A stretch of 64,000 nt of DNA, taken from the NCBI GenBank assembly GCA_902800645.1, contig CADCFC010000003.1, forward strand, positions 1,598 through 65,597, in the 5' to 3' direction. Position numbers and translations under genes: made by a program. Shown here one piece after another: positions 2,412 through 39,763 of this stretch; position 1 is the first letter of the stretch; each line of letters begins with the position of its first letter. Source of the DNA: an uncultured Erysipelotrichaceae bacterium (GTDB lineage Bacteria > Bacillota_I > Bacilli_A > RFN20 > CAG-826). A model generated the notes under the pieces. The model was not told the DNA's origin and did not search any database. It was given only the letters and a program-made list of their open reading frames with translations.

Positions 2412-5400
2412 TTAAAATTTCTTCTTGCTGTGTTCCAAAAGTACTCCAATGCTATTGTTGTTTGAAATTTTATCAATAAAGTACTTCTTTTTATTTTCAA
2501 TTAAACTATCATAATTTTCAATGCAATACCTACGAGCTATTAACCTTACACAATTTTTGTTAAATTCGGTATTATTTTTATTGTCTATATAATTAATTAC
2601 GCTATCAATAAATTGGTTTTCCCTAGCAGAAAAAGACATTATCATGAATCTTTGAATATCCTTTACTGGATTAGCGTCGTCTCTTAATCTCTCACACAAT
2701 CTTTCGTTTAACATAGGATTATCTAGCGGCCTAGAACCAACATCATATATACTCAAAACGGTTGCTGTAACATACGATAAGAGCAAATCAAAAAAGCGGC
2801 TTATAAATTTTGTAGAGTATTTCTTATTATTGCTCTGTTCTCTTTGCATTTGAACATACATTTTTTCTAAATCGTCATTTGTAATTGTTATATATTTATC
2901 TACAACAATATTTGGTAGAGTCAGCGCAATTGATGTTAATTTATCTTTGATGCCTTTTGTCAATTTTGATGGAGCTGAATTCAATAAATTTGATACCACT
3001 TGCGACTTATTTAGTAAGTCGATCATTTCTTTCATTGTTTCACTTGCATCCTTTTCATAGAAGAAATCATCAGAATGTTCTAAATAATTTTCGCGTTGAA
3101 TTTGTTCTGCTTTACTGATGTCTTGCTTTATTTCGCTTATTCTATTCTCATCCAGTAGTTCAATTCTTTTTCTTTCGCTTTCAAAATATTTACTGATGGA
3201 ACTAAAATCTTTAAGTTCTAATTTAGCTCCACTAATTTTGTTGTAAAGATCGTTTGTAAAAAAATCAAGAATATCATCATAATTATAGTTATTAGAAATA
3301 TTTAGCAAAATATATGAATTTAATGACGAATAGAGTCCTCTTGAAAGAACTACTTCGATTTCTATTTTGCTGTGCTTATTGTGCAAACAATTTACTATGT
3401 ATTCACTTATAAAATAAGCAAAAATCTTTCTATTGATAAAAGAATAGCTAAAATCTTCGTTTTTCTTTAAAATATCTAAATCAATTAATTTTGAAAGATA
3501 AAGCTCAATCTTTTTTTGATCAAACGGAGGATCGTAAAGAGCAATTTCTCGATCGTAGACATCACAAAAGTCATCCTTGCTAAATGAATTATGTTTTTTC
3601 ATGTAGCAATCATATGCCATGTCACCAAGCATTCTTATGGAGTTAAATCTTCCACAATTAGCAAAACTTTTATCTTTTTCAATCAAATCTAGTTTACTAT
3701 CATATTTTGTTTTTTGATGAGACCAATTTTTATCTACGTTATGAACATCAACATCGAACAACATGCTTGTTGATAGGTCTAAAATACTTTTTGGATCAAT
3801 ACTATTCATCTTGTCCATTTTTTCGATGACTTTATCAAAAGTAGTAATAAAAGTATCTTTTTTAAAATTTTCCAAAATATCCGGTTTAATTTTTGCTGCA
3901 GTATTATAAATCAGTTGTAAAAATTCGTCCCTTTTTGCTTTATAAAGAACGTCAATCGCTAGAACTAAAACATTATCGTTTAAAGCTTCATCATTAGAGA
4001 AAAAATCACAAACGTGAGAATTGGACATTAAAATTATATTCCCAAATAACGTCGTTGAATCCATTATTCTTTTGAAATCAGCAACATCAGAATCGTCAAT
4101 AATAAGGATTCTGGATTTTTCCTCTGTGTTCCAGTACAATTGTTCGGCTGACTGATTGTTATAATTATCTTTTATAATTGAAGACATTAATAATTTAGCG
4201 CTTTTGTTGGTTGACACTTTTGTAAAATTATTCCCAGAAGTAATTAAAGGATTAAAGCCTCTACTGACGAACAAATGAAAAAGTCGATTTGCAAGCACAC
4301 TTTTGCCAGACTCATCATCACCTTTGATGATTACTATTTTCTTTTTCTTGATGGCTTCTACGAATTTGTCAAAAGTTGTTATTTTTTTCTTTTCAAAATT
4401 CAGGTATTTCTTTTCTGTTAAGTTTGGAAACACAAAAATATTAGATATATCGGTAGAGGTGTGACCAAACTTCACAAAGTTATTCTGATCTACTTGTTTC
4501 AAATTAACTCTTAGTTTATCTTTTGTTGCTTCTTTTCTTTTAAAATCTATGGCGTTAATGCCATTATCATTTATTTCTTCGTATACATAATCATTTTCAT
4601 TAAAAAGATATAGTTGATAATACATTTTATTATTATCTATATGAAACAGTGTAAAGCCGGATTGCCCATCGGAATATAATGCCGGCGCAGTAAGTTCAAT
4701 ATACCCAGCACTATTTGCGACAATAGAATCCTCATGAGTGTGTCCAGTAAAAACAACATCAATATTATTTGAAACAATTTGAGACAATTTTCCTTTTGTT
4801 TCTTTTCTTAAATAGGAAAATGGTATGTGCATAATCAAAAAGCTTAACGTTTCGTTTTCTCTCTCAATTTTCAAATGGTCAGGAGCTATATAAATATTTC
4901 CAATATTTGCGGCGTCGTCGCCTTCAGGGCTTGAATATGCTGACAATAATGAATTATTCAATGAATAGACGCTTACCTTATTATTGTCATAGGTAAAATT
5001 GAATTTTAACAAAACGTTATTTATCTGGCTTTTAGATTCGAAATTAGTATTTACGAAATCGTTATAATTATCATTTAAATACATTAATTCATTTATTTTT
5101 TCATCAAAATTGCTATCTTTGATGCTTTTAACGTATTCCGAATCAATTGTCTCTTCATTAAATTTTCTGTCATGGTTTCCTGGACAAATAGCTATTCTAA
5201 TTTTCTTTTTTATTTTTGCCTTAATTTCATTAATAAAATTTGAAAAAACTTCGTAATCTTCTTTTAAGCCACTTTGAACAGCATCTCCAGTGAATAAAAT
5301 TAAAACATTATTAGAAAAGTCATCATTATTAACAATATTTTTTATGCTATCGATTTTTTCATCAAGAAAAGTTAGCCTACGATATAAGTGTAAATCAGTA

Positions 5401-5432
5401 ATATGTAAAACTATTAATTTCATAAAAATCAC
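2412..5432 (-). CDS. Calcineurin-like metallophosphoesterase fused to a P-loop NTPase and a ~500-aa helical C-terminal region (STAND/Avs-like architecture)
   Basis: All five metallophosphoesterase motifs are present in order: HITDLH, FTGDAVQSG, CPGNHDR, LIMHIP, FTGHTHED. Walker A is IIKGDDESGKSVL (~aa 370) and Walker B is RILIIDDSDV (~aa 450); the rest is helical with no motif I recognise. The track start at 5432 is a GTG; the ATG at 5423 (MKLIVLHITDLH) is the more likely start. Confidence 0.75.
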   Translation of the reverse strand: MIFMKLIVLHITDLHLYRRLTFLDEKIDSIKNIVNNDDFSNNVLILFTGDAVQSGLKEDYEVFSNFINEIKAKIKKKIRIAICPGNHDRKFNEETIDSEYVKSIKDSNFDEKINELMYLNDNYNDFVNTNFESKSQINNVLLKFNFTYDNNKVSVYSLNNSLLSAYSSPEGDDAANIGNIYIAPDHLKIERENETLSFLIMHIPFSYLRKETKGKLSQIVSNNIDVVFTGHTHEDSIVANSAGYIELTAPALYSDGQSGFTLFHIDNNKMYYQLYLFNENDYVYEEINDNGINAIDFKRKEATKDKLRVNLKQVDQNNFVKFGHTSTDISNIFVFPNLTEKKYLNFEKKKITTFDKFVEAIKKKKIVIIKGDDESGKSVLANRLFHLFVSRGFNPLITSGNNFTKVSTNKSAKLLMSSIIKDNYNNQSAEQLYWNTEEKSRILIIDDSDVADFKRIMDSTTLFGNIILMSNSHVCDFFSNDEALNDNVLVLAIDVLYKAKRDEFLQLIYNTAAKIKPDILENFKKDTFITTFDKVIEKMDKMNSIDPKSILDLSTSMLFDVDVHNVDKNWSHQKTKYDSKLDLIEKDKSFANCGRFNSIRMLGDMAYDCYMKKHNSFSKDDFCDVYDREIALYDPPFDQKKIELYLSKLIDLDILKKNEDFSYSFINRKIFAYFISEYIVNCLHNKHSKIEIEVVLSRGLYSSLNSYILLNISNNYNYDDILDFFTNDLYNKISGAKLELKDFSSISKYFESERKRIELLDENRISEIKQDISKAEQIQRENYLEHSDDFFYEKDASETMKEMIDLLNKSQVVSNLLNSAPSKLTKGIKDKLTSIALTLPNIVVDKYITITNDDLEKMYVQMQREQSNNKKYSTKFISRFFDLLLSYVTATVLSIYDVGSRPLDNPMLNERLCERLRDDANPVKDIQRFMIMSFSARENQFIDSVINYIDNKNNTEFNKNCVRLIARRYCIENYDSLIENKKKYFIDKISNNNSIGVLLEHSKKKF

Positions 5433-5736
5433 CGCTTATTTAAAAATCTTTCATTAACATAATCAACCATTTATACATCTTTTGTCAATTCTATTGAGAT
5501 GGAATATGTATTTTTCAAAAACATAACTTTTATATGCCTGACTATCGTTTTTTTAACTGATAGTCTTAAATCTAACAATTCACTATTTTTTGACAATGAT
5601 ATGGATATATAAAAAGCTTTATTTTTCAGTTTTCGACACAAAATAGTGACGATGAATAATAAATATAACAATATTTTTATTCTCAATAATTAGTGTTATG
5701 GAAGGTCGAACATTGAATAAAATCTGGCTAAGGAAA

Positions 5737-5837
5737 CTATATAATCTCCCACTTATAGATATCTCGGCAAGTGTTTGTCTCCGCCAACTACTAACCACAT
5801 ACAATCTCTAAGACAAACACGAGGCATGTGTCGTTTT
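5737..5837. repeat. Island repeat, copy 1 (right-hand hairpin half; a degenerate left half may extend back to ~5590)
   Basis: About 85% identical by eye to 17342..17442: ctataWaatctcc...ttatagatatYYcggcaaGTGTTTGTCT-N30-AGACAAACACgag. The 10-bp stem is 5771..5780 / 5811..5820. Confidence 0.7.
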
Positions 5838-5898
5838 TTGCAAACGAAATATATGAATTGTCATTGTAAGTAATAATCAATTATTTTATGATTGATTT

Positions 5899-6882
5899 AT
5901 GGCAGATAAATTATTCTTAACAATCGATGAACAATTGAACCATTTATCATTAGATAAAGAGATTTCTTGTGGTGAAGCGCATAAAGAATCATTACTGAGA
6001 ATTGGTTATTTTAATTTGGTTAATGGTTATAAAACACCATTTACATCTAGTAAGGATGCTCAGGGTAATCATATATACGCTAAAGGGACAACATTAGATG
6101 AGCTGATTAATCTTAAAAACTTTGATGATGACTTGAGATATATTTTGATTAGAACATTAACCAAATGTGAAGAAGAAATAAAAACAATCGCTAGTTATAT
6201 ATTAGAAAAATATAAGCCAGCTAAAATAACTTGGAGAAGTACAAACGCATATAATAAGGCGCTAGATAAATCTAATATTGATAGAATTAATAAGCTTATA
6301 AGCAGAATGCAAAAGCAATTAAACGAAAGAGAAGATTTGGAATATGTAAAGTTTTATAAATCGTCTCATAAAGGAAAAATCCCTATGTGGGTAATTACAA
6401 AAGCAATATATTTTGGAACATTCATTGATTTAATAGAATTATCTAAACCAATAGTCGCAGAATCGCTTTGTGAATTATATAATATTAAAGACATAAACAA
6501 TGATAACGATATTAAATTATTAATTGGTTCACTACACTGGATAAGAATTTTTAGAAACGCCTGTGCACATAATGAAAGAATATATTGCTTAAAAGGTGCA
6601 GGTAGAATTTTTGATATAGAAATAAGAAAATTTGGAAACAGATATATGAGAATCAAAGAAAGAAAACTATTTGATCTTCTTGTCTATCTCCGTTACTACA
6701 TGCAGAAGAAAGAATATCAACAATTAATTAAAAACATCAAAGATAAATTAATAAAACTCCAGTCATCTATATCAGTGTACGCTTTTGATAACATAAGAGG
6801 TGGGATGGGTATTAAAAATTTAGAAGACTTAGATATATTATCTAAAGATGGATTTGATAACGGTTACATGAAATTATATTAA
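5899..6882 (+). CDS. Abi_2 family (AbiD/AbiF-like) abortive-infection protein
   Basis: Family landmarks: RIGYFNLVNGYK (the YYRLSxY-like segment), NLKNFDDDLRYIL, and the hallmark SLHWIRIFRNACAHNERIY (RNxxAHxxR motif). Confidence 0.8.
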   Translation: MADKLFLTIDEQLNHLSLDKEISCGEAHKESLLRIGYFNLVNGYKTPFTSSKDAQGNHIYAKGTTLDELINLKNFDDDLRYILIRTLTKCEEEIKTIASYILEKYKPAKITWRSTNAYNKALDKSNIDRINKLISRMQKQLNEREDLEYVKFYKSSHKGKIPMWVITKAIYFGTFIDLIELSKPIVAESLCELYNIKDINNDNDIKLLIGSLHWIRIFRNACAHNERIYCLKGAGRIFDIEIRKFGNRYMRIKERKLFDLLVYLRYYMQKKEYQQLIKNIKDKLIKLQSSISVYAFDNIRGGMGIKNLEDLDILSKDGFDNGYMKLY

Positions 6883-6960
6883 TTGTACGATTGTAGTTGA
6901 CAATAGGTATTAAATATTGATAGATTATTGATACAAGAGATATCCTTTATAGGATGAAAA

Positions 6961-6985
6961 GGTGCCGAGTAATCGACGCCTTTTT
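6961..6985 (+). terminator. Probable intrinsic terminator of the Abi_2 gene
   Basis: GGTGCCGA-GTAA-TCGACGCC (one mismatch, one wobble) followed by TTTTT, about 80 nt after the stop codon. Confidence 0.45.
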
Positions 6986-7020
6986 AATTTTAAATATTTA
7001 AATTAATGAGATGAACAACG

Positions 7021-7239
7021 CTATTTAAAAAGTTTTGGAGTTATATAAACAAAGAACGTAAAAAATAGTAATTGGTTATAATTCTTACTATTAGAGTGAA
7101 TAACATAAGTTGCTAATACTTTATGATTACCTTTAGTCAATATTCCTCTTTTTAATATTGTTAACCAGAAGATGTAGTCCTCATGACGGTTATATGTTTC
7201 ATCAAAATATAAATCACCTTTAACACTTCTAACATACAT
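7021..7239 (-). pseudogene. C-terminal stump of a family-2 glycosyltransferase
   Basis: DETYNRHEDYIFWLTILKRGILTKGNHKVLATYVIHSNS matches the post-catalytic EDYxxWL...Y(R/V)xxxxS segment of GT2 enzymes. The frame closes with TAA 13 codons upstream of the Met, and no catalytic N-terminal half is present. Confidence 0.55.
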
Positions 7240-7537
7240 AGTGGATAGGCAAGATAAAGGGTTACTCTTAATGAATGTTTATAGTTCGTTACCCATGGCA
7301 TTATAAAATACATGCACGAATTTCAGCTCGTCTTCTATAGCTTATGGAAATTAAAACTTCGTGTTCTATACTAAAAAACTAAGTCGAAAATCAAAATGGT
7401 ATTTTATTAATCGTATTATCGAGATCTTAAAATTTAATTTTTTTAAGAAGATTACATAAATCCTGGGTTTCTTGGGTTAGTGGTGCTATACTCACCGAAC
7501 GATTGTTCCTTCGTCAATCCTAAAAGAATAAATGCTT

Positions 7538-8785
7538 TTAAAATGAAAATGGATTTTTGATTGCACCCTTAGTAACAAACAACAATTCAAATTGTACAAT
7601 ATTGCCAGTCACCTCGAAGATATCATTAACAAAAAATAAACTTAGAAATATGCGATTGTTTTTCTCGTTTGTATAAATCAATTCCTTAACAGCAATGTTC
7701 AAGGTTTCTTTTTTAGTGTTTTCTATAACATAAAATGATAAGGTTGGGTCGTCGTTCATTTGTTCAATTCTTTTTATGGAGTTAATATCAATAATTATTT
7801 CGTTGTTCTTCAATATAGGCCTATTTCTAACAATGCTCATGAGGAATTGGTTGATTGAATTGTGGTTTCTAACAATATATTCTGGCTTTCTCAAAAGCCT
7901 ACCCAGCGCGCGTCTGATTCTTCTTTTATCGTACCAGTAGTTTAAATTTTTTCCATTAATCAAATTTAGTGACTCTTTAATTAAATCCTCACACACTTCT
8001 ATTCCAATCCTATCGTTCATTTCGAATTTAATAGATTTTTCAATCATCTCATAGACTGGTTCCAATTCAATATTGTCACTTGTATAAGATTTAATCTCAA
8101 AATCATAATCAATCCTTTCAATGCCGTCGTTGAATGAATAGTAACTTTTTTTCAATAAGGCATATACTGTTTTTGCAAAAGAATATACATCACTTGCATA
8201 ATATTTGTCGGTGTCTATGATTGTTCTGTCCATGAGTTCTGGTGGAGTAAAAGTATATGAACCCATCCTTGAATGGTTTGTTTCTCCACCCTCTTCACTA
8301 ATCAGTCCAAAATCACACAAAATCAAAACGTACCCATCACCATTATCTTTCTTCTCAAATAAAATATTTGTTGGTTTAATATCGCGATGAGCAAATCCTT
8401 GCGAGTGTATATATTTGATTGCGTCAATTAAGTCTAAACAGTATTGAAGAATAGTCTTATTCGTTGGATTTGAAGCATAAAAATCATTGATCGTTAAATA
8501 TTTTTTCATAACAAAAAATTCAGGACCATTCTTATAAGAGTCAATAAGTTTAGGAATATGAATGTCTTTATTTTGATGTTTCTTTAAAAAATCTATTTCT
8601 TTGTTAAATCTCTCTAATCTGATTGCTCTATCGGTTCTAATTTCGGCTACATTAAAAACCTTCGCGACAATCTCGTTGTTACATGCAACAGATCTAATAA
8701 CGCCATTCCCGCCTTTGGGGTCGTTTTCATTTTTTACAATTTTATATGATTGAATGTATCCGTTTAATATTTCTGAATTATTCAT
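7538..8785 (-). CDS. Hanks-type Ser/Thr protein kinase with an unassigned ~150-aa C-terminal domain
   Basis: G-loop KGGNGVIRSV, catalytic Lys in EIVAKVF, HRDIKPTNILF, CDFGL, TFTPPEL. The start is set at ATG 8785..8783, which overlaps the TAA (8780..8778) of the upstream ORF (ATGAATAA). The track's longer start at 8842 lies inside the upstream gene. Confidence 0.8.
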   Translation of the reverse strand: MNNSEILNGYIQSYKIVKNENDPKGGNGVIRSVACNNEIVAKVFNVAEIRTDRAIRLERFNKEIDFLKKHQNKDIHIPKLIDSYKNGPEFFVMKKYLTINDFYASNPTNKTILQYCLDLIDAIKYIHSQGFAHRDIKPTNILFEKKDNGDGYVLILCDFGLISEEGGETNHSRMGSYTFTPPELMDRTIIDTDKYYASDVYSFAKTVYALLKKSYYSFNDGIERIDYDFEIKSYTSDNIELEPVYEMIEKSIKFEMNDRIGIEVCEDLIKESLNLINGKNLNYWYDKRRIRRALGRLLRKPEYIVRNHNSINQFLMSIVRNRPILKNNEIIIDINSIKRIEQMNDDPTLSFYVIENTKKETLNIAVKELIYTNEKNNRIFLSLFFVNDIFEVTGNIVQFELLFVTKGAIKNPFSF

Positions 8786-11700
8786 TTTCTGCAAAACGTC
8801 TTTCTGATTCTGCATCATGATAAAAACAATCCGCGACATCATTTAAAATCAAGGCGCTTTTTGGAAAGCCTGTTTGTTTTAGCAAGCGTGACTCGCTCTT
8901 ATAATAATTGGCTTTAACAATAAGATCCGACCCATCGCCAATAGTCCTGACTCCAACACCATTCATTATCGAGGTACAATAACTCGATTTTAAATAATTA
9001 TAAGCCTTGTCATTTTGAATGTTTTCAATGAAATCGGCAACCTCTTTAGGAATTAGTAACCCCTCTTCTTTTTTTGAGTAAGCAAAAAGTTTCCCAAGGG
9101 ATGAATAAAATAGATAATCTTTTTCATCGAAGTCTGTTTTATAAATCAATTCACGATACTGATTAACCCATTGTTTAAATAAATTGCCATCAAAAACACC
9201 ATGATAATATCCAGGACAAAATTTTAAATCAAAATATAATAATCCAAACAGTGTTGCTTTTCTTTTAGAATCCTCTTCCTTCTTGATATAAACACTTTCA
9301 ATAAATTCAAAGTATGTCTCAGGGTGTTTACCTAAATGATTGTATAAACAAATCGGTTCGCACTCATGCGTTTTAATAGCCATGATTTCCAGAGAAGCAA
9401 TTTGAAGTTCAATTGTCTCGTTGTTTGTAGAGGAAAATCTTTCATGAAGGATGTCTAACAAAAGTGGAAGATACATTAAGTGACTAGATGAAATTGCACC
9501 TGGCTCTGCTTTTGTCAAGCATTCAAGTACAACATCGCCCAAATCGCTCCCTTTATAATTGTGAGCAAAAAAGTAAAGTGCTTCCAAAATTGGGCTTTTT
9601 AAAGAATTATCTCTTTTAAAAGCATCGTTTAAGCTTTCAATAGCAAATGTAATCGATTTAGGGTTGGAGCAATCAATATTCACATAACTTTTAAAATTTG
9701 ACCAATACAAATCTTGAACGCATCGCGGGAGGACCTGATACATACTAGCAAATTCATCATCATTAAGATTAAAAGGAACAACATACAAATACTCTAAAAG
9801 AGCTGATTCATTATTGGTGGCTTGTACTTGTTTTAAAATTGAATAGTAATTTTTCTTATCGTTGTAAAACAAATCTCTACCTAGATAAGAGAACAAAGCG
9901 CTAACATTAGGTGTCTTAGCTAATAAAACTTCAACAAATTGATTAAGACTTCTATTATTAACAGTCATTTCGAAATCTTTTGCAAAATAATAAAATCTGT
10001 CAAAAACATTCACTTTACCAGCATTTTCGTTAAAATGTTGATACAAATAATCTATCGAGAGTCTGTCTTTTTTAAATTTGGCATACACCGTTTCTAAGAA
10101 TTGTTCATTATTTTTTTCTTGAAGCGCATATGAATAATTATTGCTATCATAAACGACAGGATTCGGGTTTTTAATTTCAAAGGATGTAAAATAATCTATA
10201 TATTCGATTTCAGGATTATCCAATTTAATTTTTGGAATTAACAACTCAAAGTCCTTGATAACTTCTTCAGGCGCAGCCCACCCTGCATTAGCAAATTCTC
10301 TATTCTTATGTATAAATGATTTAATTCTATTTATAACAATCATTTTATCGTAATCATTAGCTTCCTTACATACAGACATTATCTTTTTAATAACCATTTC
10401 TCTTGCTTTATTGCCGAAATATACAAAAGAGTGTTTGTCTATAATCTCAGCAATCTGAGTGCAATTATTTGCATGCTCCAAAACAATATCATTGTAGAAA
10501 CTATACCTTTCAGAAATAACTTTGTTTGTTAGTTGTTGCTCTGGCATTTTAAATGTCAAATAGACTGGATGATTAAACGGCATCGCCGTATCTCCACCAC
10601 CCGAATATAAAAGATCTATGAACAAATTAAACGCCGCATTTGAATCAATTTTAAAAAGATGCCTGCAAAGTTCAGTTCTTTCTTCTTCTGTAGCAGGGGT
10701 TGCTTGAAACCACGCCAAGAAAAAAACATGTAAAGTAGACTTAGGCGAATTTGAAATCTGGTAGGAGAGATTAAGTTGATATAAAGAAAAGAGTGCTTCA
10801 ACGGCTTTTTTTCTTTCGCTATCGAAAAAGAGGATCTTTTCCAAACACCACAGAACATTTGTGTACCAATTTTTTCCAAATATAAAATCAGGTTTGGAAG
10901 ATTTGTTTAAAAATAGTTTGCATAGCCCTGACTTGTTTTTTATATCAGATGATATTTTGTCTATAGTTAAAGAAGCATTAATTTCAACAATCTTATCTAA
11001 ATAATCAGAAAGATACCTATAATGTTGATCTGTTTGATTCTCATCGATCCATTTAAAAAAAGTGTCAACAAGATTGGCTGTTTGATTTTTAAACTTTCCT
11101 TTTTCGTTCAAAAAGATTAACGAAATAAAAATGCTCTCGATAAGAGAAGGAGAATAAGAACTTTCGCTGTTTTTAAAGACTAAAGGACTATCTCCGTATT
11201 TATCCGGAAGTGTACATAAAACATTTTTTGCCAATTCAAAAAACTTATCTGCAATAGAAGATGAAATATCAGAATAAAATGATTCGAATGAGCCTTCATA
11301 ATCAAGAACGATGAGATTTGTTTGGTGAAAGTCTACTATTTCCTTTGCGTATGGAGTTTCCGATAAAGATGGCGGTTGTATCTCCTCAATATAATCACTA
11401 ATTCCAAGGCCACTTATCTTTTCGATAAAATCCGCATCAAGAGGATTATTAACTTGGAACTTTCTTATTAGTAAAGAAGTTGATAAAACACGGGACTTAA
11501 TTGACGACTTAATTCTCGCTTCAAATGTATCGGTTTCTTTGCATAGTATTCTGTAGAGATTTGGAAAAGTATTTTTTGATCTCCTCATCAAAGATGAAAT
11601 ATCATCACTCTTAAAATCACTCTTCTTCAATGCTTCTCTTGTTGATTTTGCAAGTCTAGGCCTCAAAGTGATTTGAACACCAGATACTTTCCATTTAGAG

Positions 11701-12482
11701 ACAATATGAATGTTCATATATTGTCTAAATGCAGGGATAGATTCATCGGTAAAAAATTCATTAATCAGAATAGAATTATTAGGCAAAGAATAATGCTGAA
11801 CATTTAAATAATCTGCTCGGCTATTAAAAATGAAAACTCTTGAATTATAATCATCAGGAAAAATCTTTTTAAGCTCGCATAACGTTGCATAAAGGGTTTC
11901 TAATTGATAAGTCCCTTTGATAAGCAGTGGATTATTAGGACCTCTAAGCGATTCACTTAATTCACCGGAAAAATGTGCATCCTGAAAATCAAATAAATCT
12001 AGAGTAAGTGGCTTATTTTTGTTGTCCCTTGAAGAACAAGAAAGATAGTTATTTAATTCATCAATGGTAAAGTAATTTAGATTATAATAATAGGACGATT
12101 TTAATTCTTCTAGTTCCTTATCAAGTTTTTGCTTATCTAGTTTTAGTTCTTCAATGCTGGAATGCATTAAATCCTGTTGAATCAAAACATATAATAATGG
12201 TTGACTAGCTTTAATTTTATCAAGCAATGAGGATAAAAAGGAATTAATATCACTGTCCAAATATCCCTTATTGATAAGTAATTCCTTTATTGCCTTCACC
12301 ACTTTAACAAGGCTTTGTCTATAAGTATATTTAGCGACATCTAAGACGGCATCATAATCTATGTTCTGATTTTCTTTTTGTGCAAGAATATAATAGCCTT
12401 CCCAAGACGCCTTGCTAGCAAACAATTCAATAGCTTTGTATAAAACTTTTATAATAGAGGGCGCCGCATCAATAAATTTCAT
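8778..12482 (-). CDS. 1234-aa predicted all-helical protein of unknown function, translationally coupled to the kinase
   Basis: Long uninterrupted ORF with a coiled-coil-like segment SSIEELKLDKQKLDKELEELK. I found no intact Walker A, TM or nuclease motif. Residues ~185-225 resemble a decayed P-loop core (PLLIKGTYQLETLYATL ... SRVFIFNS). Its stop overlaps the kinase start. Confidence 0.7.
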   Translation of the reverse strand: MKFIDAAPSIIKVLYKAIELFASKASWEGYYILAQKENQNIDYDAVLDVAKYTYRQSLVKVVKAIKELLINKGYLDSDINSFLSSLLDKIKASQPLLYVLIQQDLMHSSIEELKLDKQKLDKELEELKSSYYYNLNYFTIDELNNYLSCSSRDNKNKPLTLDLFDFQDAHFSGELSESLRGPNNPLLIKGTYQLETLYATLCELKKIFPDDYNSRVFIFNSRADYLNVQHYSLPNNSILINEFFTDESIPAFRQYMNIHIVSKWKVSGVQITLRPRLAKSTREALKKSDFKSDDISSLMRRSKNTFPNLYRILCKETDTFEARIKSSIKSRVLSTSLLIRKFQVNNPLDADFIEKISGLGISDYIEEIQPPSLSETPYAKEIVDFHQTNLIVLDYEGSFESFYSDISSSIADKFFELAKNVLCTLPDKYGDSPLVFKNSESSYSPSLIESIFISLIFLNEKGKFKNQTANLVDTFFKWIDENQTDQHYRYLSDYLDKIVEINASLTIDKISSDIKNKSGLCKLFLNKSSKPDFIFGKNWYTNVLWCLEKILFFDSERKKAVEALFSLYQLNLSYQISNSPKSTLHVFFLAWFQATPATEEERTELCRHLFKIDSNAAFNLFIDLLYSGGGDTAMPFNHPVYLTFKMPEQQLTNKVISERYSFYNDIVLEHANNCTQIAEIIDKHSFVYFGNKAREMVIKKIMSVCKEANDYDKMIVINRIKSFIHKNREFANAGWAAPEEVIKDFELLIPKIKLDNPEIEYIDYFTSFEIKNPNPVVYDSNNYSYALQEKNNEQFLETVYAKFKKDRLSIDYLYQHFNENAGKVNVFDRFYYFAKDFEMTVNNRSLNQFVEVLLAKTPNVSALFSYLGRDLFYNDKKNYYSILKQVQATNNESALLEYLYVVPFNLNDDEFASMYQVLPRCVQDLYWSNFKSYVNIDCSNPKSITFAIESLNDAFKRDNSLKSPILEALYFFAHNYKGSDLGDVVLECLTKAEPGAISSSHLMYLPLLLDILHERFSSTNNETIELQIASLEIMAIKTHECEPICLYNHLGKHPETYFEFIESVYIKKEEDSKRKATLFGLLYFDLKFCPGYYHGVFDGNLFKQWVNQYRELIYKTDFDEKDYLFYSSLGKLFAYSKKEEGLLIPKEVADFIENIQNDKAYNYLKSSYCTSIMNGVGVRTIGDGSDLIVKANYYKSESRLLKQTGFPKSALILNDVADCFYHDAESERRFAENE

Positions 12483-12499
12483 GTTAATTACCTAGTTTG

Positions 12500-12508
12500 A
12501 TTATATCA
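12500..12508 (-). promoter_or_regulatory. Possible extended -10 element (TGATATAAT) for the giant-protein/kinase operon
   Basis: The minus strand reads tTGATATAATcaaactAGGTaattaacATG. This would give a very short leader, and the -35 is poor. Confidence 0.3.
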
Positions 12509-12808
12509 AAATATCGTGGATGTATAAATATATCAAAATTAGGGAAAACTATATATAGAAATGATAATTGGAATTTTAAAGACTACTTTTAACCTTAAAA
12601 AACATAAAAGATTCATTTTATTGTATAAGTCATTATTATCACTTTACTTATTTTTTTATATAGCAAAAATCCATCTTACTTTTATCACAGATATACATTC
12701 ATCATATTTATTTATAGGTAAATTGACATCAACTTTGAAAGAATATCAAACTTAAAACGATATTTGTCCCCTTAAAGAAATAAAATCGAAAGACAAATGT
12801 ATTATGAA

Positions 12809-12847
12809 TCCTAAGTCTAGCGCGTCTGCAAGTTCCGCCACGCAAGC
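12809..12847 (-). pseudogene. Orphan 5' half of a tRNA-Leu(UAG)-like gene (acceptor strand, D-arm, 5' anticodon stem and loop only)
   Basis: Minus strand: GCTTGCG-TG-GCG-GAACTTGCAGA-CGC-G-CTAGA-CTTAGGA. This is colinear with the intact tRNA-Leu at 39550..39634 (GCGGATA-TG-GTG-GAATTGGTAGA-CAC-G-CAAGA-CTTAGAA). After the anticodon loop the sequence (TTCAT...) no longer pairs, and there is no variable arm, T-arm or CCA. Confidence 0.55.
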
Positions 12848-13011
12848 AAGATATTAAACGCGCAAACCTAATACCTTTCTAATTTATATCTTGAAAGATA
12901 AAATTAGCAAATGTTTTCTATAATTATATATAAAATATTGTTATAAAAAAACTCGGGTATCTAATCCCAAGTCGTTTATTCAACAATAAAATACAAGGAT
13001 ATAAATAAGCA

Positions 13012-13188
13012 CTAAAAATTAACAAACTTGCTCAACTCATCAATTGTGATTTGTTCTTCTTTATTATTGGTCGCACTTAAAACAACTGTGCCACTTTTTG
13101 TATATGTTAATTTAACGTACTTAGCGTTATTAGTTTTTTCTTCTTCTGCAGCACTTGGATTACTCAAAAGTTTGTCGATCTCGGACAT
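13012..13188 (-). CDS. 58-aa small hydrophilic protein, third gene of the AbiH-like operon
   Basis: Below the track's size cutoff. AGGAGTAAAAAA-ATG lies 24 nt after the stop of the 2-TM gene. Hand translation: MSEIDKLLSNPSAAEEEKTNNAKYVKLTYTKSGTVVLSATNNKEEQITIDELSKFVNF*. Confidence 0.45.
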   Translation of the reverse strand: MSEIDKLLSNPSAAEEEKTNNAKYVKLTYTKSGTVVLSATNNKEEQITIDELSKFVNF

Positions 13189-13212
13189 TTTTTTACTCCT
13201 AGAAATATAATA

Positions 13213-14061
13213 TCATTTCTTGTAATGTTCGCATAGCATTAATAGGCTTGGATAAGAAACATTACCTTCTTTTTTATAAATATCATAATAGAACAACTTA
13301 ACAACTTCTATAATGATATCTTTGAATTGAGCGTCCACCAATTCTCTGTCTAATAAATTGTTCATATATTGAATGGCCAAGCTCTCAAAGAAATTCAAAA
13401 CCTTTATTCTTCTTTCATGATAAATCCTTAACACTTGGGAACAACCAATCGTGTTTTTGTCTAATTTATATCCTTTTTCACCATTATAAACTTTGCTGAT
13501 GTGTTCAGAAAAACTATTACTCACAACATTAGGTTCAATAGTTAAAAACAAAATAGTCTTTTTAATTAAAAGGTTTTGATATTCATCTTCGTTTTCAAAT
13601 TCAGATTCAAACTTTTTAATTGCTTCTTCTTGAATCTCTAATGATGGCTCAACTTTTAATCTCGCCTTTTTAAGCGAACCCCTAACTTCAACTTGAACAT
13701 TTTTTGTGAAGCGATAAAGAGGGGTTGTACTGTAGTTAAATTCTTTGATTGCTTCAATAACTGCACCAAGCTTAGTTTCTTTCTCCTTCGCTCTTCGAGA
13801 ACGTTCATTAAATAAATACGTTCCAACCGCATTTAATAAAATACCGGCAGAAAATAGAGATCCAGCAATACCAATTGCAATCGTATGTAGTTCCTTTGTG
13901 TTAAAGTTCTTATTTTCTAGGAAAAAGAAAATCAATAAAACAACAATTGCAATAACACCAATAACGAGAAATGCTCCAACAAACACATAGAAAACAATTG
14001 TTGGAATCTTAATCTCGCGTTTATTTGTATCATAATTCTTTTTGTTATCTTTCATATACAT
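13213..14061 (-). CDS. Two-TM membrane protein with a cytoplasmic C-terminal domain (DUF4760-like by eye)
   Basis: Two hydrophobic helices: IPTIVFYVFVGAFLVIGVIAIVVLLIFFFL and TIAIGIAGSLFSAGILLNAVGTYLF. The C-terminal LNFFESLAIQYMNNLLDRELVDAQF...YPSLLMLCEHY resembles my memory of DUF4760-type proteins. It lies 43 nt downstream of the AbiH-like gene. Confidence 0.6.
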   Translation of the reverse strand: MYMKDNKKNYDTNKREIKIPTIVFYVFVGAFLVIGVIAIVVLLIFFFLENKNFNTKELHTIAIGIAGSLFSAGILLNAVGTYLFNERSRRAKEKETKLGAVIEAIKEFNYSTTPLYRFTKNVQVEVRGSLKKARLKVEPSLEIQEEAIKKFESEFENEDEYQNLLIKKTILFLTIEPNVVSNSFSEHISKVYNGEKGYKLDKNTIGCSQVLRIYHERRIKVLNFFESLAIQYMNNLLDRELVDAQFKDIIIEVVKLFYYDIYKKEGNVSYPSLLMLCEHYKK

Positions 14062-14104
14062 TATTATCTTATAACTTTATTCTACTGTCTATGTTAAATG
14101 GGGA

Positions 14105-15271
14105 TTAAATTTTTCTAATTTGTAGCCTGTTTTCCAATTGTAATCTGCTGATAATTGTAGTGACTTTTTCTTCACTTCCTGATTTTTTAGCGTAGTCGGT
14201 CAGTAATTTATAGACAGAAGAAACAAAAGCTGCTCTAATATTGGCGTTTTCTTCTTCGGTTTCTTTGTATTCTGTATAGCAAAATATAAGCGATATACCA
14301 CTATTGTAAATGTCATAATAATCAAACAACGAATGAAAATAAGAATAGTCCTGTGGGCCAAGAGAATGACCATAAATTTTGATTTTATTAATATTTTCTT
14401 TTTTAGGCAATTCATACGGCTTGTCGGATAGATTCATTTTTTGCCATGCTTTGCTCATTTTAATGCTCAAAGTTTCGTTGTCAGAAACATCACCTGAATC
14501 AAACCCAATAATAATTTCATTTTCTAAACTTCCGTGTATATTGTAATAATTTCTTTTGAATTCATGACTTTCCGAATCAACAAACCATTTCAATGGATTT
14601 GTGTAATTGAATGAAATAATTGAAGTTGGCTCAGAATAAAAGTTAATTAATTTGCTTAGCAGTTTTTTACAATTGTTGGTGTATTCAGTATCACTGACAA
14701 CACAATTACTAATATACTCCTTAAAATCGGCTTCAAACTTTAATAGTTCTAAATACAAATATGAGTATATATTAAAACCAGATACTTCTATTTTTATTTT
14801 ACGGAAATGTTTTTTGATTGAAACTAATTGACTACGTTCCCCAACAATGTATCCTGACATTCTTGTAGAAAACAAGGAATTCAAATAATCTAAGTAATTT
14901 GAGCAATTGATAGGGAGGTTTATATTCATCCATTTATCATCTTTTTTATTAAATGTAACAATCTTTTTAACGAAACTTTCAATATCCATCCAACGCGGAT
15001 TACTAATAGGAATTTTTTCAACAATTTGATTAAACTCGCTATCATAATAAGTTTCGTCGTAAAAAGCAAAATAAAACAACAAATACCAAATATTATCGCA
15101 CACAACGTTTAAATAAGTGTCAGCAGCGGATTTAATAGTTGAAATTTTTGTTTTAAAAAAATCATTAAAACTACTTTTAAGGCCACAGTTTAAATCAAAA
15201 CCATTGCCGATAACCAATAATGTTCCAATTATTTCATTTTCGCTTGGGCTAATTCTATTTTTTGTATTCAT
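14105..15271 (-). CDS. AbiH-like abortive-infection protein
   Basis: The N-terminal LLVIGNGFDLNCGLKSSFNDFF matches the AbiH signature (IIGNGFDLxHGLxTxYxDF). The C-terminal IKIYGHSLGPQDYSYFHSLF matches the second AbiH block (GHSLxxxDxxYF). Confidence 0.75.
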   Translation of the reverse strand: MNTKNRISPSENEIIGTLLVIGNGFDLNCGLKSSFNDFFKTKISTIKSAADTYLNVVCDNIWYLLFYFAFYDETYYDSEFNQIVEKIPISNPRWMDIESFVKKIVTFNKKDDKWMNINLPINCSNYLDYLNSLFSTRMSGYIVGERSQLVSIKKHFRKIKIEVSGFNIYSYLYLELLKFEADFKEYISNCVVSDTEYTNNCKKLLSKLINFYSEPTSIISFNYTNPLKWFVDSESHEFKRNYYNIHGSLENEIIIGFDSGDVSDNETLSIKMSKAWQKMNLSDKPYELPKKENINKIKIYGHSLGPQDYSYFHSLFDYYDIYNSGISLIFCYTEYKETEEENANIRAAFVSSVYKLLTDYAKKSGSEEKVTTIISRLQLENRLQIRKI

Positions 15272-15790
15272 TTCGTCATCATTATATATTACATGGCACT
15301 AGAATCATATTAATCTTAGTCATAAGATGGGCAAATTTATCAGTCCTCTAAAGTTTTTCATTACACAAAACAAAACTTAATAGTGCTAAATTATTTTTGA
15401 TTTAGTGGCATTCTTTTTCTTTGATTCTATCAGGCATAAGTATTTTATCTTTCTTGTATTTCTCTTATAAAAATTAAAGCATAACGAGTCACCCATTAAT
15501 AAATATTTAGGGACGACATTAATGTTATTTTTTAGAACTACGTAAAATAAGTCTTTCGTTTTCTTTTGCCATAAAACGCCCATCCAATTACATAGAATCA
15601 ACTTCTAATCCAATTTGTTCCTTGGGTTTTATGATAAATGTAATGCATATATCTAATTAGTTTTAATTTGTTTCTAGACTTACTGTTTTCTAATATACAA
15701 TTGATGTCATATCCGTATCTTTAAAGCAATTCCGACCGAAACAAATATTATTATTTTTTTCTTCAATTGATTTATAAATATATAGGAAAA

Positions 15791-15947
15791 AATAGATTCA
15801 TAATTGATAAGAATCAGCCATATAAATATAACATCGCCATCATCATTCTTGGTGAACTATTTAATGAAGGAATAATAGATATTTTTGATATAGCGGAATC
15901 TCTTATTAAATTAACAAAACTATATAATCTCCCAGTAATAGATATTT
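15791..15947. repeat. Island repeat, copy 2 (left-hand 157 nt only)
   Basis: Colinear without indels with 17213..17369 (about 85% identity by eye): aatagattcataattgataaRaatcagccatat...gatatttttgatatag...ctcttattaaatt... It diverges just before the hairpin half. Confidence 0.7.
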
Positions 15948-16208
15948 ATAAAAAAGAAAGTAATTCCACTACTTCAAAGCGGTTGCCATGGAAGGAACTT
16001 CCTGGGTAATTGCGCCTCCAAAAACGTTTAGCAAAATTTCTCATACATTAAAATAAAAAACAATAATTCTTTCATGGCAATCTAGTCATCTCCTTTCCTC
16101 TACTACCATCAAAAAATCCAACATAAAAATGTAGGTATTACCAAAAGCATTAATTTTTGATTTTTTATTCAGTAACGAAAAATAGTTTCCGACTGTAATA
16201 ATACAAAG

Positions 16209-17132
16209 CTAATCCTTTGACAAAATAAATGATTTGTTTGTTTTCTTTACTATAAAATTATTTGTCTTCTCACAGCAAACAAATCCGTCACTCCCAAAAG
16301 AAATTAGTTGAAATTTCATTTCTAGTTTTGGCTGTACCATGAAAAAATTTTGAAATGCAATAATTATATTAGGAATATTATCAACAAGAAATTTTTCCCA
16401 TTTAGCTGCCTCCTGACGATAAATGATTGATTTCAATGTTGAATCAATAGGGTTGCCGTTTGACATTGAACCACCACCAGCGTTAGTTAAAACCAAGCCA
16501 TTATCAAGAACGGCAAAACCATTGATATTACATTCTCTCAGGGCCTTTATGTCATTATTAGAAAGTTCTTTAGAAGCAACGCCATTAACAATAAATGGGC
16601 TTAATAAGTTTGGCCAATTCCGATATATTATTTCCAAATAATCCTTGTCCGTAAAGCAATGAATATCATTATGATCTTTTACGGTAATGAAATATACAAA
16701 ATAATCTGTAACCCATGCGATAATCAAATGGTTGCTTCTTTGAACTCTGCCATCAGTCCTATATCTCCTGGACAAATGAAAATGGAATAAATTCCAATCA
16801 TTCAGGATACCATCGTTGTAAGTAACGTCATCATACTTTTCAGTTAAAAAGGGTTTTAAATTGTCTCCGTTAATTATTTTTATTTCAAGTTCACTCAATG
16901 CCAGCTCATATCCAGACGGACAGACAAATGAATCAGACTTTTTAACTTGTCTAGGCATTGGTTTTATTGTTTTCTTCATCATCTTAAACATTTCAATAGG
17001 TGCATTTCGATTTACTGTTGGTGAAAACCCATTATTAACAATATTGCTTTTAGCAATTTTTTCACAATCTTTTTCGAAATCAATTTCAGCAATCCATAAA
17101 TATTTTTCAGGAATTTTGGCTTTGTAAATCAT
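16209..17132 (-). CDS. Hypothetical 307-aa protein (orphan cassette between two repeat copies)
   Basis: Clean ORF with no motif I can assign. It contains WNLFHFHLSRRYRTDGRVQRSNHLIIAWV. It is flanked by repeat copy 3 upstream and copy 2 downstream. Confidence 0.55.
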   Translation of the reverse strand: MIYKAKIPEKYLWIAEIDFEKDCEKIAKSNIVNNGFSPTVNRNAPIEMFKMMKKTIKPMPRQVKKSDSFVCPSGYELALSELEIKIINGDNLKPFLTEKYDDVTYNDGILNDWNLFHFHLSRRYRTDGRVQRSNHLIIAWVTDYFVYFITVKDHNDIHCFTDKDYLEIIYRNWPNLLSPFIVNGVASKELSNNDIKALRECNINGFAVLDNGLVLTNAGGGSMSNGNPIDSTLKSIIYRQEAAKWEKFLVDNIPNIIIAFQNFFMVQPKLEMKFQLISFGSDGFVCCEKTNNFIVKKTNKSFILSKD

Positions 17133-17212
17133 GAGTTAATTATAGGATAAATAAACTTGCAATATATCTTTTTTGATAAACTTATAGATATATGAGAAAG
17201 CAAAGAGAGATG

Positions 17213-17442
17213 AATAGATTCATAATTGATAAAAATCAGCCATATGGATATAACATCGCCATCATTATTTTTGGTAAACTACGTAATGAAGTAATGATAG
17301 ATATTTTTGATATAGTAAAAGCTCTTATTAAATTTAGGATACTATAAAATCTCCAAGTTATAGATATTCCGGCAAGTGTTTGTCTACGCCAACTACTAGC
17401 CATGAACAACCTCTAGGACAAACACGAGCCATATATCATTTT
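17213..17442. repeat. Island repeat, copy 3 (full length, ~230 nt)
   Basis: The left half matches copy 2 and the right half matches copy 1. The stem is GTGTTTGTC (17376..17384) / GACAAACAC (17417..17425) with a ~32-nt loop. Confidence 0.7.
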
Positions 17443-17553
17443 AGAATCCAACTGACATCCTAACGAATTCTAATGAATCCAAAGAATAAAATGCTTAACA
17501 TTAATCTCTTGATAACAAATAAATTATTATGGAGAGCATTACTCGACAATGTT

Positions 17554-19809
17554 TTAAAGACTATCTACTCTATCTTTGAATGATTTAATATCTCTCAACG
17601 AAATAGAAAGATATGGGGAAATCATCATTGTTGTAGCATGATCGATTGCGTTATACATGACTGAAAAATCATTATGAATTTGTTGGCATCTCTCAACAAA
17701 TGCATTTAATCCATGAACAGGTGTAGATTTATTTAACGAAGAAATAGAACTAATAATCGATTGGAGTCCACACGCTTTTTTCATTTTTACATCCATTATG
17801 CTTGAGGAAAAACAAGAATAACCTTTATCCACCACTTTTTTCTCAAACTCAAATTTGATAGTTTCAATCATTAATGCCTTTAAGAAGATATAGTTTATAA
17901 CATCAGAATATTTGTTGCTTCTAAACGAATTAAAAGGTCTTTTTGCAACATTCTCCCTAAATGTTACCATTAATCTAGAATCTCCATTGTAAGCTGATGG
18001 CACATTTTTATTACTATCGTGTGTCCTTACATAAAGCTGAGCCAAAGATGCTATTGTCAAAGTGCTTGTTCTATCCATATTTTTTCCCGCAAAATAATTA
18101 TTTGAACGATAATGTTCAAAACACGAAACAATCTTATCTTTAACATCATTACTCCAACCTACATCAATTTTTCCTGTTTTCGTTACAATTTCTAGATATT
18201 TCAACTTCTTAATTGTTTCTGTGTTTATGTTTCTTAGCGGAAGCGACATCGCGCAAAACATTAAATCAGGATCATAAGGGTACGTTGTCTTTTTGGTGGT
18301 AATAAAATCAACAAGAAAATACAAATCGTTTTTTCCAATCTTTTTTACCTCTTTGCTTGTGCATTTTTGATGCCAGTAATTATATGAGGAATCATTATAA
18401 ACATAATCTGGATCGTCTAAATAAAAGATGGCATCACATTTTTGAATCTCTGAGAGGTTATAAACGCATTCAAAATCATTAGTAAGCATATACCAATTAT
18501 GCAAACGCCTAAGTTTTAAAATCTTTTTTATATATTTAATGGCTAATAACTTAGTGTAATCATCATAGCTATCTATCGGATCATCAAGAATTAAAACGTC
18601 TGTGTCAGAAAAATATATTTCTGCGTAAAGCGTAACTAAAACCAATCTCTTAAATTCGCTTGTAGACAAGAATTCTTTGGCAGATTGTTTTTTGTTGTTG
18701 ATTTTAAAAACAAAGCCTTTCTTTCCATCAAGAGGTAAAATTTTAATATCATCATCAAGATGAATAATAGATCTAATCTCATTTATTACAAACAAATTAA
18801 AATTATTAATTTTTTTCAAATCTTTATTAGTTGTTCCATCTATTTCACCGATTTTGCTTTCAAGTTTATTTATTTTATCTAAACAACCAAAAATAGTGTC
18901 ATCTTCTTCTGGAATATTAATTTCTCCAATTTTATTAGACATCAAATATACATTGTCCATACATAATTGTATGTATAGCTTAAGAGCGATAAATAATTTT
19001 CTTTTATTGTTATTTGATTCTATACTATCAAATATTTTCTTAATTATTGGATTATCAGTTTTTTCCTTGAATAGAATCAGCCTTTTAACAAGGCTGTTCA
19101 TTTCTCTAACAGCGTTTTCATTTTTTATTATTTTTAATTGAGAATAGTGATTTTCAATATGTCTTATCAAAGAATTATAGTTTCTATACCTTTTTCCACA
19201 TAAAAGACATGTCTTAAAATGATTTAACTTTGAATAAAGTAGTATTGAAAAAACACTATCTTTAATCTCTTGATCTACATATAAATCATCTAGTTCGTCT
19301 TTCTCGATTTTGTCATAAGCATCATATCTATCAATAAACGATTTAATATCTAAATAAAGAGGATAATCTAAAGAAACATCCATATTTTCAATCGCACTAT
19401 CATCATAGTCTGCATATTTTTCCCTGATCCGACTTACATTCTTTTTAATGAGTTTAGGTTTATCACTTGCTTTGGTAACGTGATAAAACATTAAAACAAA
19501 ACTATTTTTAACAGCGGCCGTTAATGATTTTACCCCTAGCCCATTAACAAATGGTTTTGCTTTTTCGATTGACTCTTCGATGTGCTTCTTTTTTGTTTGC
19601 ATCTTCGCTGTTGAGCCAAGAAAAAATTCATCATCAAATTCATCAATTAAATCTTCAAGACTTTTGTTAGTAAATAATTTTACTTTTTTCCCATCTTTTC
19701 TTAGTTCATCTGCCATTTTAACGGAATTTGTAGTTTTTCCAAATCCATTAGGGGCATATATGATTGTTTTATTCCATTCTGTGAGAAAAGAGTTGCTATA
19801 TGGGTACAT
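17554..19809 (-). CDS. AAA_13-type ABC/SMC-like ATPase with a coiled-coil insert and CxxC, plus a ~340-aa C-terminal domain (RloC/PrrC-like architecture)
   Basis: Walker A is IIYAPNGFGKTT. A long helical insert contains CLLCGKRY. There is an ABC-signature-like LSTSEFKRLVLVTL, then Walker B/D-loop DVLILDDPIDSYDD. The C-terminal third is unassigned. Confidence 0.65.
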   Translation of the reverse strand: MYPYSNSFLTEWNKTIIYAPNGFGKTTNSVKMADELRKDGKKVKLFTNKSLEDLIDEFDDEFFLGSTAKMQTKKKHIEESIEKAKPFVNGLGVKSLTAAVKNSFVLMFYHVTKASDKPKLIKKNVSRIREKYADYDDSAIENMDVSLDYPLYLDIKSFIDRYDAYDKIEKDELDDLYVDQEIKDSVFSILLYSKLNHFKTCLLCGKRYRNYNSLIRHIENHYSQLKIIKNENAVREMNSLVKRLILFKEKTDNPIIKKIFDSIESNNNKRKLFIALKLYIQLCMDNVYLMSNKIGEINIPEEDDTIFGCLDKINKLESKIGEIDGTTNKDLKKINNFNLFVINEIRSIIHLDDDIKILPLDGKKGFVFKINNKKQSAKEFLSTSEFKRLVLVTLYAEIYFSDTDVLILDDPIDSYDDYTKLLAIKYIKKILKLRRLHNWYMLTNDFECVYNLSEIQKCDAIFYLDDPDYVYNDSSYNYWHQKCTSKEVKKIGKNDLYFLVDFITTKKTTYPYDPDLMFCAMSLPLRNINTETIKKLKYLEIVTKTGKIDVGWSNDVKDKIVSCFEHYRSNNYFAGKNMDRTSTLTIASLAQLYVRTHDSNKNVPSAYNGDSRLMVTFRENVAKRPFNSFRSNKYSDVINYIFLKALMIETIKFEFEKKVVDKGYSCFSSSIMDVKMKKACGLQSIISSISSLNKSTPVHGLNAFVERCQQIHNDFSVMYNAIDHATTMMISPYLSISLRDIKSFKDRVDSL

Positions 19810-22883: not shown

Positions 22884-22984
22884 ATATTGAATTATACAAT
22901 AACCTTCTTTTTTTTAAAACAAATTATCTTTAAGATAAATGATATTTGAAATAATAATTAATGTATGATTAAATCAAATGTAGA

Positions 22985-24091: not shown

Positions 24092-24092
24092 T

Positions 24093-33152: not shown

Positions 33153-33155
33153 ATT

Positions 33156-39634: not shown

Positions 39635-39680
39635 ATAAAAATAAAATAGTGACAATTAAGCCACTATTATTTTTTTTAAA

Positions 39681-39756: not shown

Positions 39757-39763
39757 AACTACT

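Follow-up and report, generated by a model that had tools for sequence, protein, structure and literature searches.

A conserved two-gene unit of a giant protein with a predicted AAA+-like fold and a Hanks-type kinase as a candidate anti-phage module in an uncultured Erysipelotrichaceae bacterium

The Hanks-type kinase Stk2 of Staphylococcus, reported by Depardieu in 2016, is said to sense a phage protein and to phosphorylate host proteins. In the NTPase-centred conflict systems surveyed by Kaur, Burroughs, Iyer and Aravind in 2020-2021, effectors are reportedly recruited in trans by homotypic effector-associated domains. In Avs8 (PD-lambda-4), a Mrr nuclease at the N-terminus is joined to a STAND module and a repeat sensor, and binding of this sensor to the phage major capsid protein results in DNA cleavage; its homolog KpAvs8 has degenerate Walker motifs, and Avs8B is dispensable and not a kinase (10.1101/2025.07.02.662641; 10.64898/2026.01.04.697583). 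DSR2 consists of an N-terminal SIR2 effector and a large HEAT-like C-terminal sensor (PMC11087589). We compare with these systems a pair of overlapping genes from an uncultured Erysipelotrichaceae bacterium, one encoding a protein of 1234 amino acids, hereafter the giant, and the other a Ser/Thr kinase, which together may constitute a two-gene anti-phage module. The pair lies in a stretch of 64,000 nucleotides (contig CADCFC010000003.1 of assembly GCA_902800645.1, positions 1,598 to 65,597), to which we refer as the window.

Both genes are encoded on the minus strand, the giant upstream of the kinase:

8778..12482, minus strand: gene of the giant, 1234 amino acids (open reading frame and translation), with pseudo-AAA+ module, winged helix and alpha-solenoid; proposed sensor or scaffold
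7538..8785, minus strand: gene of the Hanks-type Ser/Thr kinase, 415 amino acids (Pfam Pkinase, E 3e-25); proposed effector
8778..8785, minus strand: stop/start overlap of the two genes, 8 nt, ATGAATAA, read from the letters

The open reading frame (ORF) of the giant ends in GAA AAT GAA TAA, and the kinase ATG at 8785..8783 sits within ATGAATAA. An alternative ATG at 8842 would extend the window kinase to 434 amino acids; in two of the paired loci (L001 and L089) only the overlapping ATG is available as an in-frame kinase start. The pairing was recovered from either gene. Giants with 92%, 77% and 44% identity to that of the window all have a Pkinase gene that overlaps their downstream end. Kinases with 50%, 43% and 32% identity have as upstream neighbour either a giant or, where the contig ends, the C-terminal part of one; the identity of these upstream genes to the giant of the window is 70%, 39-42% and 22%. 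Over the seven paired lineages (L001, L006, L008, L089, L090, L102 and L103), which span identities of 22-92% for the giant and 32-93% for the kinase, the overlap measures 8-11 nt. Every kinase above 32% identity has a giant upstream, and kinases at or below 30% have other neighbours.

Both genes are under purifying selection. The ratio of nonsynonymous to synonymous substitution rates (dN/dS) stays between 0.08 and 0.18 in every region of both genes. In the comparison with L001 it comes to 0.095 (giant) and 0.143 (kinase), with 0.08-0.16 for all sub-regions, including the C-terminal domain of the kinase and the N-terminal domain of the giant (0.11). Base composition around both long ORFs is about 30% G+C; given their length in such DNA, the low dN/dS and an overlap that is kept in seven lineages, they are not chance ORFs. 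Since pairing and overlap are conserved, dN/dS is low and no third gene is conserved at the paired loci, we regard giant and kinase as one selected unit. The sequence-only reading, which had located the kinase start in the tail of the giant ORF and had taken the two genes as one unit, is thus borne out. Two signals upstream of the giant were found by consensus scans:

12497..12536, minus strand: promoter-like region of the two-gene unit (TTTATA, 17 nt, TG-TATAAT at 12528-12500)
12950..12973, minus strand: terminator-like hairpin (8-bp stem, then a T run), putatively the end of the upstream transcription unit

The promoter-like stretch of 40 nt is 85% identical in L001, the remaining upstream DNA of the two loci being unrelated, and the stretch may well act as the promoter of the unit.

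The kinase scores 89.5 bits against the Pfam model Pkinase (PF00069; cut-off 31.7) over residues 29-263 and contains all motifs that had been picked out by eye, KGGNGVIRSV, EIVAKVF, HRDIKPTNILF, CDFGL and TFTPPEL. Among four orthologs, GGNGV, K42, E63, H133-R134-D135, K137, N140, D158-F-G160 and PPE183 are invariant. A score above the curated Pfam cut-off and a complete set of catalytic residues identify the protein as a Hanks-type kinase, and its sequence matches in the PDB are eukaryotic-type kinases. Its last 150 or so residues had been left unassigned when the letters alone were read, and they remain so after Pfam and PDB sequence searches, neither of which gave a match:

7541..7990, minus strand: C-terminal domain of the kinase, residues ~266-415, conserved in the kinase-linked clade

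Several PADLOC models matched the kinase, each in the kinase domain only: mad6 (E 2.5e-27), MkoA (E 5e-24), PD-T4-6 (E 4e-19), Stk2 (E 2e-9) and PglW. With the first four of these models matching, an annotation tool might label the kinase alone. PADLOC had been expected to return nothing for the pair, which holds for the giant but not for the kinase domain. Next in similarity come kinases of 579 amino acids with 30% identity (L094:2046-7448 and L095:1174-5649), which adjoin a class I S-adenosylmethionine-dependent methyltransferase; the one in L094 has an ADP-ribosyl exotoxin-like gene and an HATPase_c_3 gene in its vicinity as well. This context differs from that of the giant-kinase pair and possibly represents a conflict system, too.

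The giant itself gave no match in Pfam, NCBIfam or PADLOC scans, and PDB sequence searches with profiles of its family returned only noise; no envelope or cell-cycle family was found in Pfam, NCBIfam or the PDB sequence searches. An AlphaFold2 model of residues 35-1234 (predicted local distance difference test score, pLDDT, 79.6; predicted template modelling score, pTM, 0.66) starts with a helical N-terminus of poor definition, continues with an alpha/beta domain and a helical lid, and ends with a winged helix followed by a long all-helical solenoid:

12003..12482, minus strand: clade-specific helical N-terminal domain, residues 1-160, present only in kinase-linked giants; proposed kinase adaptor
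11307..11927, minus strand: AAA+-fold pseudo-NTPase module, residues ~186-393, with alpha/beta core (186-272), helical lid (278-339) and winged helix (341-393)
8781..11150, minus strand: C-terminal alpha-solenoid, residues ~445-1234, about 790 amino acids, all-helical and mostly above pLDDT 85 in the model; proposed ligand-sensing surface

Residues 1-160 have neither a Pfam match nor a catalytic signature. The AAA+ fold became visible only when residues 150-430 were modelled separately (pLDDT 86.5, pTM 0.81) and was missed by Foldseek with the whole model, which returned generic HEAT/ARM solenoids only (CRM1, importin-beta and CAND1, template modelling score ~0.2). With the separate model, Foldseek ranked small subunits of RFC best (E 1e-5), followed by RuvB and ORC1/Cdc6; the single STAND protein, 6mfv, appeared at rank 19 (E 2.6e-4). 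The position of Walker A is occupied by LIKGTYQLETLYAT in the giant and by the consensus V.A.S..EA.AF in its family, with a Glu that is 98% conserved. The motif GxxxxGK[ST] is missing from the first 600 residues in 145 of 147 relatives, and the window giant lacks it at the equivalent position. The suspicion of a decayed P-loop around residues 185-225 was therefore well placed, and it extends to the family. The description of the giant as helical-repeat-like was right for the solenoid of about 790 residues but incomplete, as the protein also contains a pseudo-AAA+ module and a winged helix and is no orphan but a divergent representative of a family of some 7,600 clusters.

The size of this family emerged only from an exhaustive profile search, as a word-indexed search returned just a handful of relatives. 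A HMMER profile of residues 160-1234, which we call the chassis, recovered 7,607 representatives of 50%-identity clusters from bacteria and archaea, including 4,229 with E<=1e-30; a typical member has about 1250-1265 amino acids and aligns over the full profile length. In pairwise comparisons over the chassis, the window giant matches distant members with E 1e-17 to 1e-37. At least 290 confirmed family loci are found in species-representative genomes of nearly all bacterial phyla and of a methanogen, and six viral contigs of IMG/VR carry members as well. Plasmid copies are annotated by PGAP as 'hypothetical protein' or 'HTH transcriptional regulator', and the family appears to be undescribed in Pfam, NCBIfam, the 2023 PADLOC models and the literature searched.

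Throughout the family the N-terminus varies on an unchanging chassis of pseudo-AAA+ module, winged helix and solenoid; the solenoid is the best conserved part and is kept even in distant homologs. The most frequent N-terminal module, present in 161 of 216 sampled members, is a domain of about 185 residues with invariant GWDG, WExG and K/R residues, preceded in some members by an extra helix-turn-helix domain; Pfam and PDB sequence searches with it were empty, and motifs recognised by eye give it a nuclease-like appearance. P0105 (1498 amino acids) instead carries an N-terminal PNP_UDP_1 nucleosidase at residues ~50-400, which also matches the PADLOC model PDC-M60C and a model of a 'PN-superfamily' effector of CBASS. 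A subfamily of about 1180 amino acids has an N-terminus (NPFSTGGGGxHFE...DGFDTDDLVVVVEN...LLGQVKHS) unlike that of the main family. By motifs recognised by eye it looks PD-(D/E)xK-like; a PDB sequence search with it was empty. In kinase-linked giants the usual N-terminal module is replaced by their common helical domain of about 160 residues.

Most family members stand alone, without a conserved neighbour gene. None of 80 sampled genomic family loci has a kinase within 8 kb on either side, from which we conclude that only a rare clade is linked to a kinase. The idea that homologs of the giant always occur with a kinase thus applies within this clade, where the overlap is kept, but not to most relatives. 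Relatives often lie in loci of known defence systems, in agreement with the context that had been proposed for the pair. In two loci (L050:5185-13249 and L080:1953-9957) a member of about 1180 residues is inserted between hsdS and hsdR of a type I restriction-modification (R-M) operon with 4-nt overlaps, and in a third (L054:5179-15456) hsdS overlaps such a member from upstream, an hsdR-sized ORF following two genes downstream. A metagenome-assembled genome of Arenicellales (OZ244867.1; L039:3079-12431) encodes a member of 1178 amino acids between PglX and PglZ, again with a 4-nt overlap, in a complete BREX type 1 locus of the order BrxC ... PglX-[member]-PglZ-BrxL. This locus also contains, between BrxC and PglX, a gene of 577 amino acids with weak matches to SIR2 and prokaryotic Argonaute-associated families. 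Other members adjoin genes for HEPN/MNT, YobI-ATPase, HEPN_AbiU2, Schlafen, Fic and integrase proteins.

The immediate surroundings of the pair in the window contain the following features:

5899-6882: Abi_2/AbiD gene (profile scans)
7024..7341, minus strand: pseudogene fragment of a family 2 glycosyltransferase (GT2) that follows directly after the kinase and contains an internal stop (tblastn, 46% identity over 68 amino acids to annotated GT2 proteins, E 2e-9)
12806..12843, minus strand: 5' half of a tRNA-Leu(TAG)-like sequence upstream of the unit, which aligns to the 5' half of tRNA-Leu at 39550-39634
14105-15271, minus strand: AbiH gene (profile scans)

All four had been noticed by eye, and all four were recovered, the tRNA half by alignment only, as neither ARAGORN nor Rfam called it. 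The tRNA half and the GT2 fragment bracket the unit, which suggests a cassette that came into a polysaccharide locus by insertion or underwent rearrangement there. The wider island (2412-19809) abuts a capsule/exopolysaccharide cluster at 20004-35051. Four more genes of this island lie on the minus strand. One (2412-5432) encodes a protein of 1006 amino acids that combines an nSTAND3 NTPase with a calcineurin-like metallophosphatase at its N-terminus; given its resemblance to the PADLOC candidate PDC-S60, it probably serves in defence, too. AbiH and a protein of 282 amino acids (13213-14061), encoded 43 nt downstream of it and with only weak matches to membrane-anchor families, may belong to one unit of two genes. 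Further along, a protein of 307 amino acids (16209-17132) matches PD-T4-7 (E 6e-32) without a Pfam match, and one of 751 amino acids (17554-19809), with a single weak C2H2 zinc-finger match, lies between this PD-T4-7 homolog and the glycosyltransferase genes. Four tRNA genes, for Ile-GAT, Val-CAC, Thr-TGT and Leu-TAG, are located at 39550-39971 (minus strand).

Taken together, these observations support the candidate defence system that was proposed from the letters. We consider the chances about even that the pair is a two-gene anti-phage module in which an NLR/Avs-like sensor activates a kinase effector. The giant would be an intracellular sensor of this kind, with an AAA+-fold module that lacks canonical nucleotide binding. 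A phage protein or another cue of infection would bind to the solenoid, upon which the chassis would shift its conformation or oligomerise; the N-terminal domain would then contact the kinase, probably through the orphan C-terminal domain of the latter, and turn it on. The active kinase might phosphorylate proteins of the host, the phage or both, so that growth or phage replication stops, an abortive infection comparable to that of Stk2. The helical adaptor of about 160 residues would thus sit where relatives carry their N-terminal modules, and the output would be a kinase in trans, supplied by a translationally coupled gene. All functional steps of this sensor-to-kinase mechanism are deduced by analogy.

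Several observations weigh against this interpretation. The closest folds of the giant are clamp-loader and RuvB AAA+ proteins, not STAND proteins, and the loss of Walker A rules out the usual switching by nucleotides. The sequence link to Avs8 is negligible, the one trace being a weak colinear match of relative P0003 to the PD-Lambda-4_A model (E 0.01). The N-terminal domain, the proposed adaptor, has low confidence in the AlphaFold2 model, and a homotypic adaptor, in which this domain and the C-terminal domain of the kinase would be the same, is excluded by an hhalign probability of 0.2%. That the N-terminal modules of relatives are built-in effectors is presumed from their position, PNP_UDP_1 being the sole database match. 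The kinase-linked clade was not found in 185,579 GTDB species genomes, JGI metagenomes or IMG/VR under the patterns used; its additional members came from a protein collection only, and as their contigs are short, informative context for the clade stems from the window alone.

The same gene pair could also be wired in reverse, an arrangement that we deem improbable: the kinase would sense infection and phosphorylate the giant, which would act non-enzymatically, for example by sequestering a structural or replication protein of the phage on its solenoid. The absence of a recognisable catalytic domain from the window giant fits this idea, as do the unassigned C-terminal domain of the kinase, which could bind a ligand, and the existence of stand-alone defence kinases, the models of two of which (PD-T4-6 and Stk2) match the kinase. 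Relatives of the giant, however, keep the solenoid chassis and vary the N-terminal module, the usual polarity of sensor and effector, and the kinase is present exactly where this module has been replaced, which favours a relay from sensor to kinase over the reverse. We give a low probability to the view that the two genes are independent single-gene systems brought together by chance, the kinase being PD-T4-6-like and the giant a family member that lost its N-terminal module, even though most family members lack a partner gene and PD-T4-6 is a single-gene kinase system whose model matches at E 4e-19. The conserved overlap disfavours it: pairing and an overlap of 8-11 nt occur in all seven lineages found via either gene, a giant precedes every kinase above 32% identity, and the paired giants have a specific N-terminal domain in common.

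A non-immune role, as a host signalling or scaffold module for envelope, polysaccharide or stress functions in a variable polysaccharide locus, appears similarly improbable to us. Hanks kinases often regulate envelope functions, the pair lies beside the capsule/exopolysaccharide cluster and the GT2 stump, and an epimerase gene precedes it in L001. Against this role speak the rare and patchy occurrence of the pair, which is missing from species-representative genomes, the Abi and PD-T4-7 genes right next to it, and the location of relatives within R-M and BREX operons; moreover, neither a transmembrane nor a PASTA sensor domain appeared in Pfam and NCBIfam scans. Tight translational coupling and a fixed gene order would likewise suit an addiction module similar to toxin-antitoxin operons, in which the giant restrains a kinase toxin and the pair stabilises an island that looks mobile by its tRNA half and gene stump. 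This is the explanation to which we give least credence: an antitoxin of 1234 residues, built on a chassis that is common to thousands of stand-alone proteins, is not parsimonious, and it would be encoded first and be larger by far than the known ones; to our knowledge, no antitoxin approaches the size of the giant.

If the pair defends against phages, it would represent a sensor-plus-kinase arrangement outside the 2023 PADLOC, Pfam and NCBIfam models and an entry point to thousands of unannotated proteins of about 1250 amino acids, some of which are embedded in R-M and BREX loci. With a kinase as output, phosphorylation would leave readable marks, which would make the discovery of trigger and targets practical. 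The loss of Walker A across the family raises the question of how an NLR-like chassis is activated without a nucleotide cycle. A wider reading, which we put forward tentatively and consider doubtful, is that the giant belongs to a very large unrecognised class of immune sensors (at least 7,600 clusters at 50% identity) that lack canonical nucleotide binding and swap N-terminal outputs, the window clade being the first with a separate Hanks kinase, engaged through a non-homotypic adaptor. If true, this would be a prokaryotic immune relay from receptor to kinase.

In comparison with the kinase-bearing systems, the pair shares with Stk2 and PD-T4-6 a Hanks-type kinase as the proposed active component, and their PADLOC models match its kinase domain. 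These two kinases work alone and sense via extra domains of their own, whereas the window kinase is always coupled to a partner of about 1230 residues, overlapping with it in seven lineages, and has a C-terminal domain without known relatives in Pfam or PDB sequence searches; the match to PD-T4-6 covers the generic kinase domain only, for which mad6 and MkoA score higher. A kinase domain inside a defence system is also a feature of PglW (BREX type 2/Pgl), MAD6 (MADS) and the kinase-bearing MkoA (Mokosh). The window kinase reaches 31.6 bits with the NCBIfam model PglW (cut-off 990) and 33.7 bits with MAD6 (cut-off 460), and its match to MkoA is confined to the kinase part (model positions 8-312 of 1112). 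In accordance with the sequence-only reading, the partners of these systems are missing: PglX/Y/Z are not among the neighbours, the scanned neighbours include neither MADS partners nor the methyltransferase set, and the helicase domain of Mokosh is found in neither protein nor nearby.

The giant most closely parallels Avs8/PD-lambda-4, with which it shares a size of about 1250 amino acids, a two-gene operon and a proposed layout of N-terminal output, P-loop-like fold with winged helix and helical repeat sensor; its lack of an intact Walker A recalls the degenerate Walker motifs of KpAvs8. Unlike in Avs8, Walker A is gone from nearly the whole family (145/147) rather than from single members, and the proposed output is a separately encoded kinase instead of a fused nuclease. 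Of the hallmarks of Avs proteins, the window giant has neither the Walker A that STAND P-loop NTPases carry along with Walker B nor a recognisable fused N-terminal effector; the C-terminal repeat sensor has its putative counterpart in the modelled solenoid of about 790 residues. Its predicted fold is AAA+-like with lid and winged helix, with a STAND protein (6mfv) only at rank 19, and for want of Walker A it cannot be counted among the STAND or AAA+ NTPases. The PADLOC model PD-Lambda-4_A did not match it at E<=0.01.

With DSR2 the giant has in common a long alpha-solenoid as the proposed sensing surface and an N-terminal position of the output. DSR2 differs in its fused effector and in that it is not known to have an AAA+-like or winged-helix module, and it was not among the top 50 Foldseek matches of the whole model. 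The recruitment of an effector from a neighbouring gene by an N-terminal adaptor on the chassis would resemble the effector-associated-domain systems, in which, unlike here, the interacting domains form homotypic pairs; the N-terminal domain of the giant and the C-terminal domain of the kinase are unrelated. Among described systems the pair thus resembles an NLR-like sensor with exchangeable output, the giant being like STAND and AAA+ proteins in fold and logic only, and what would be new is the kinase in trans.

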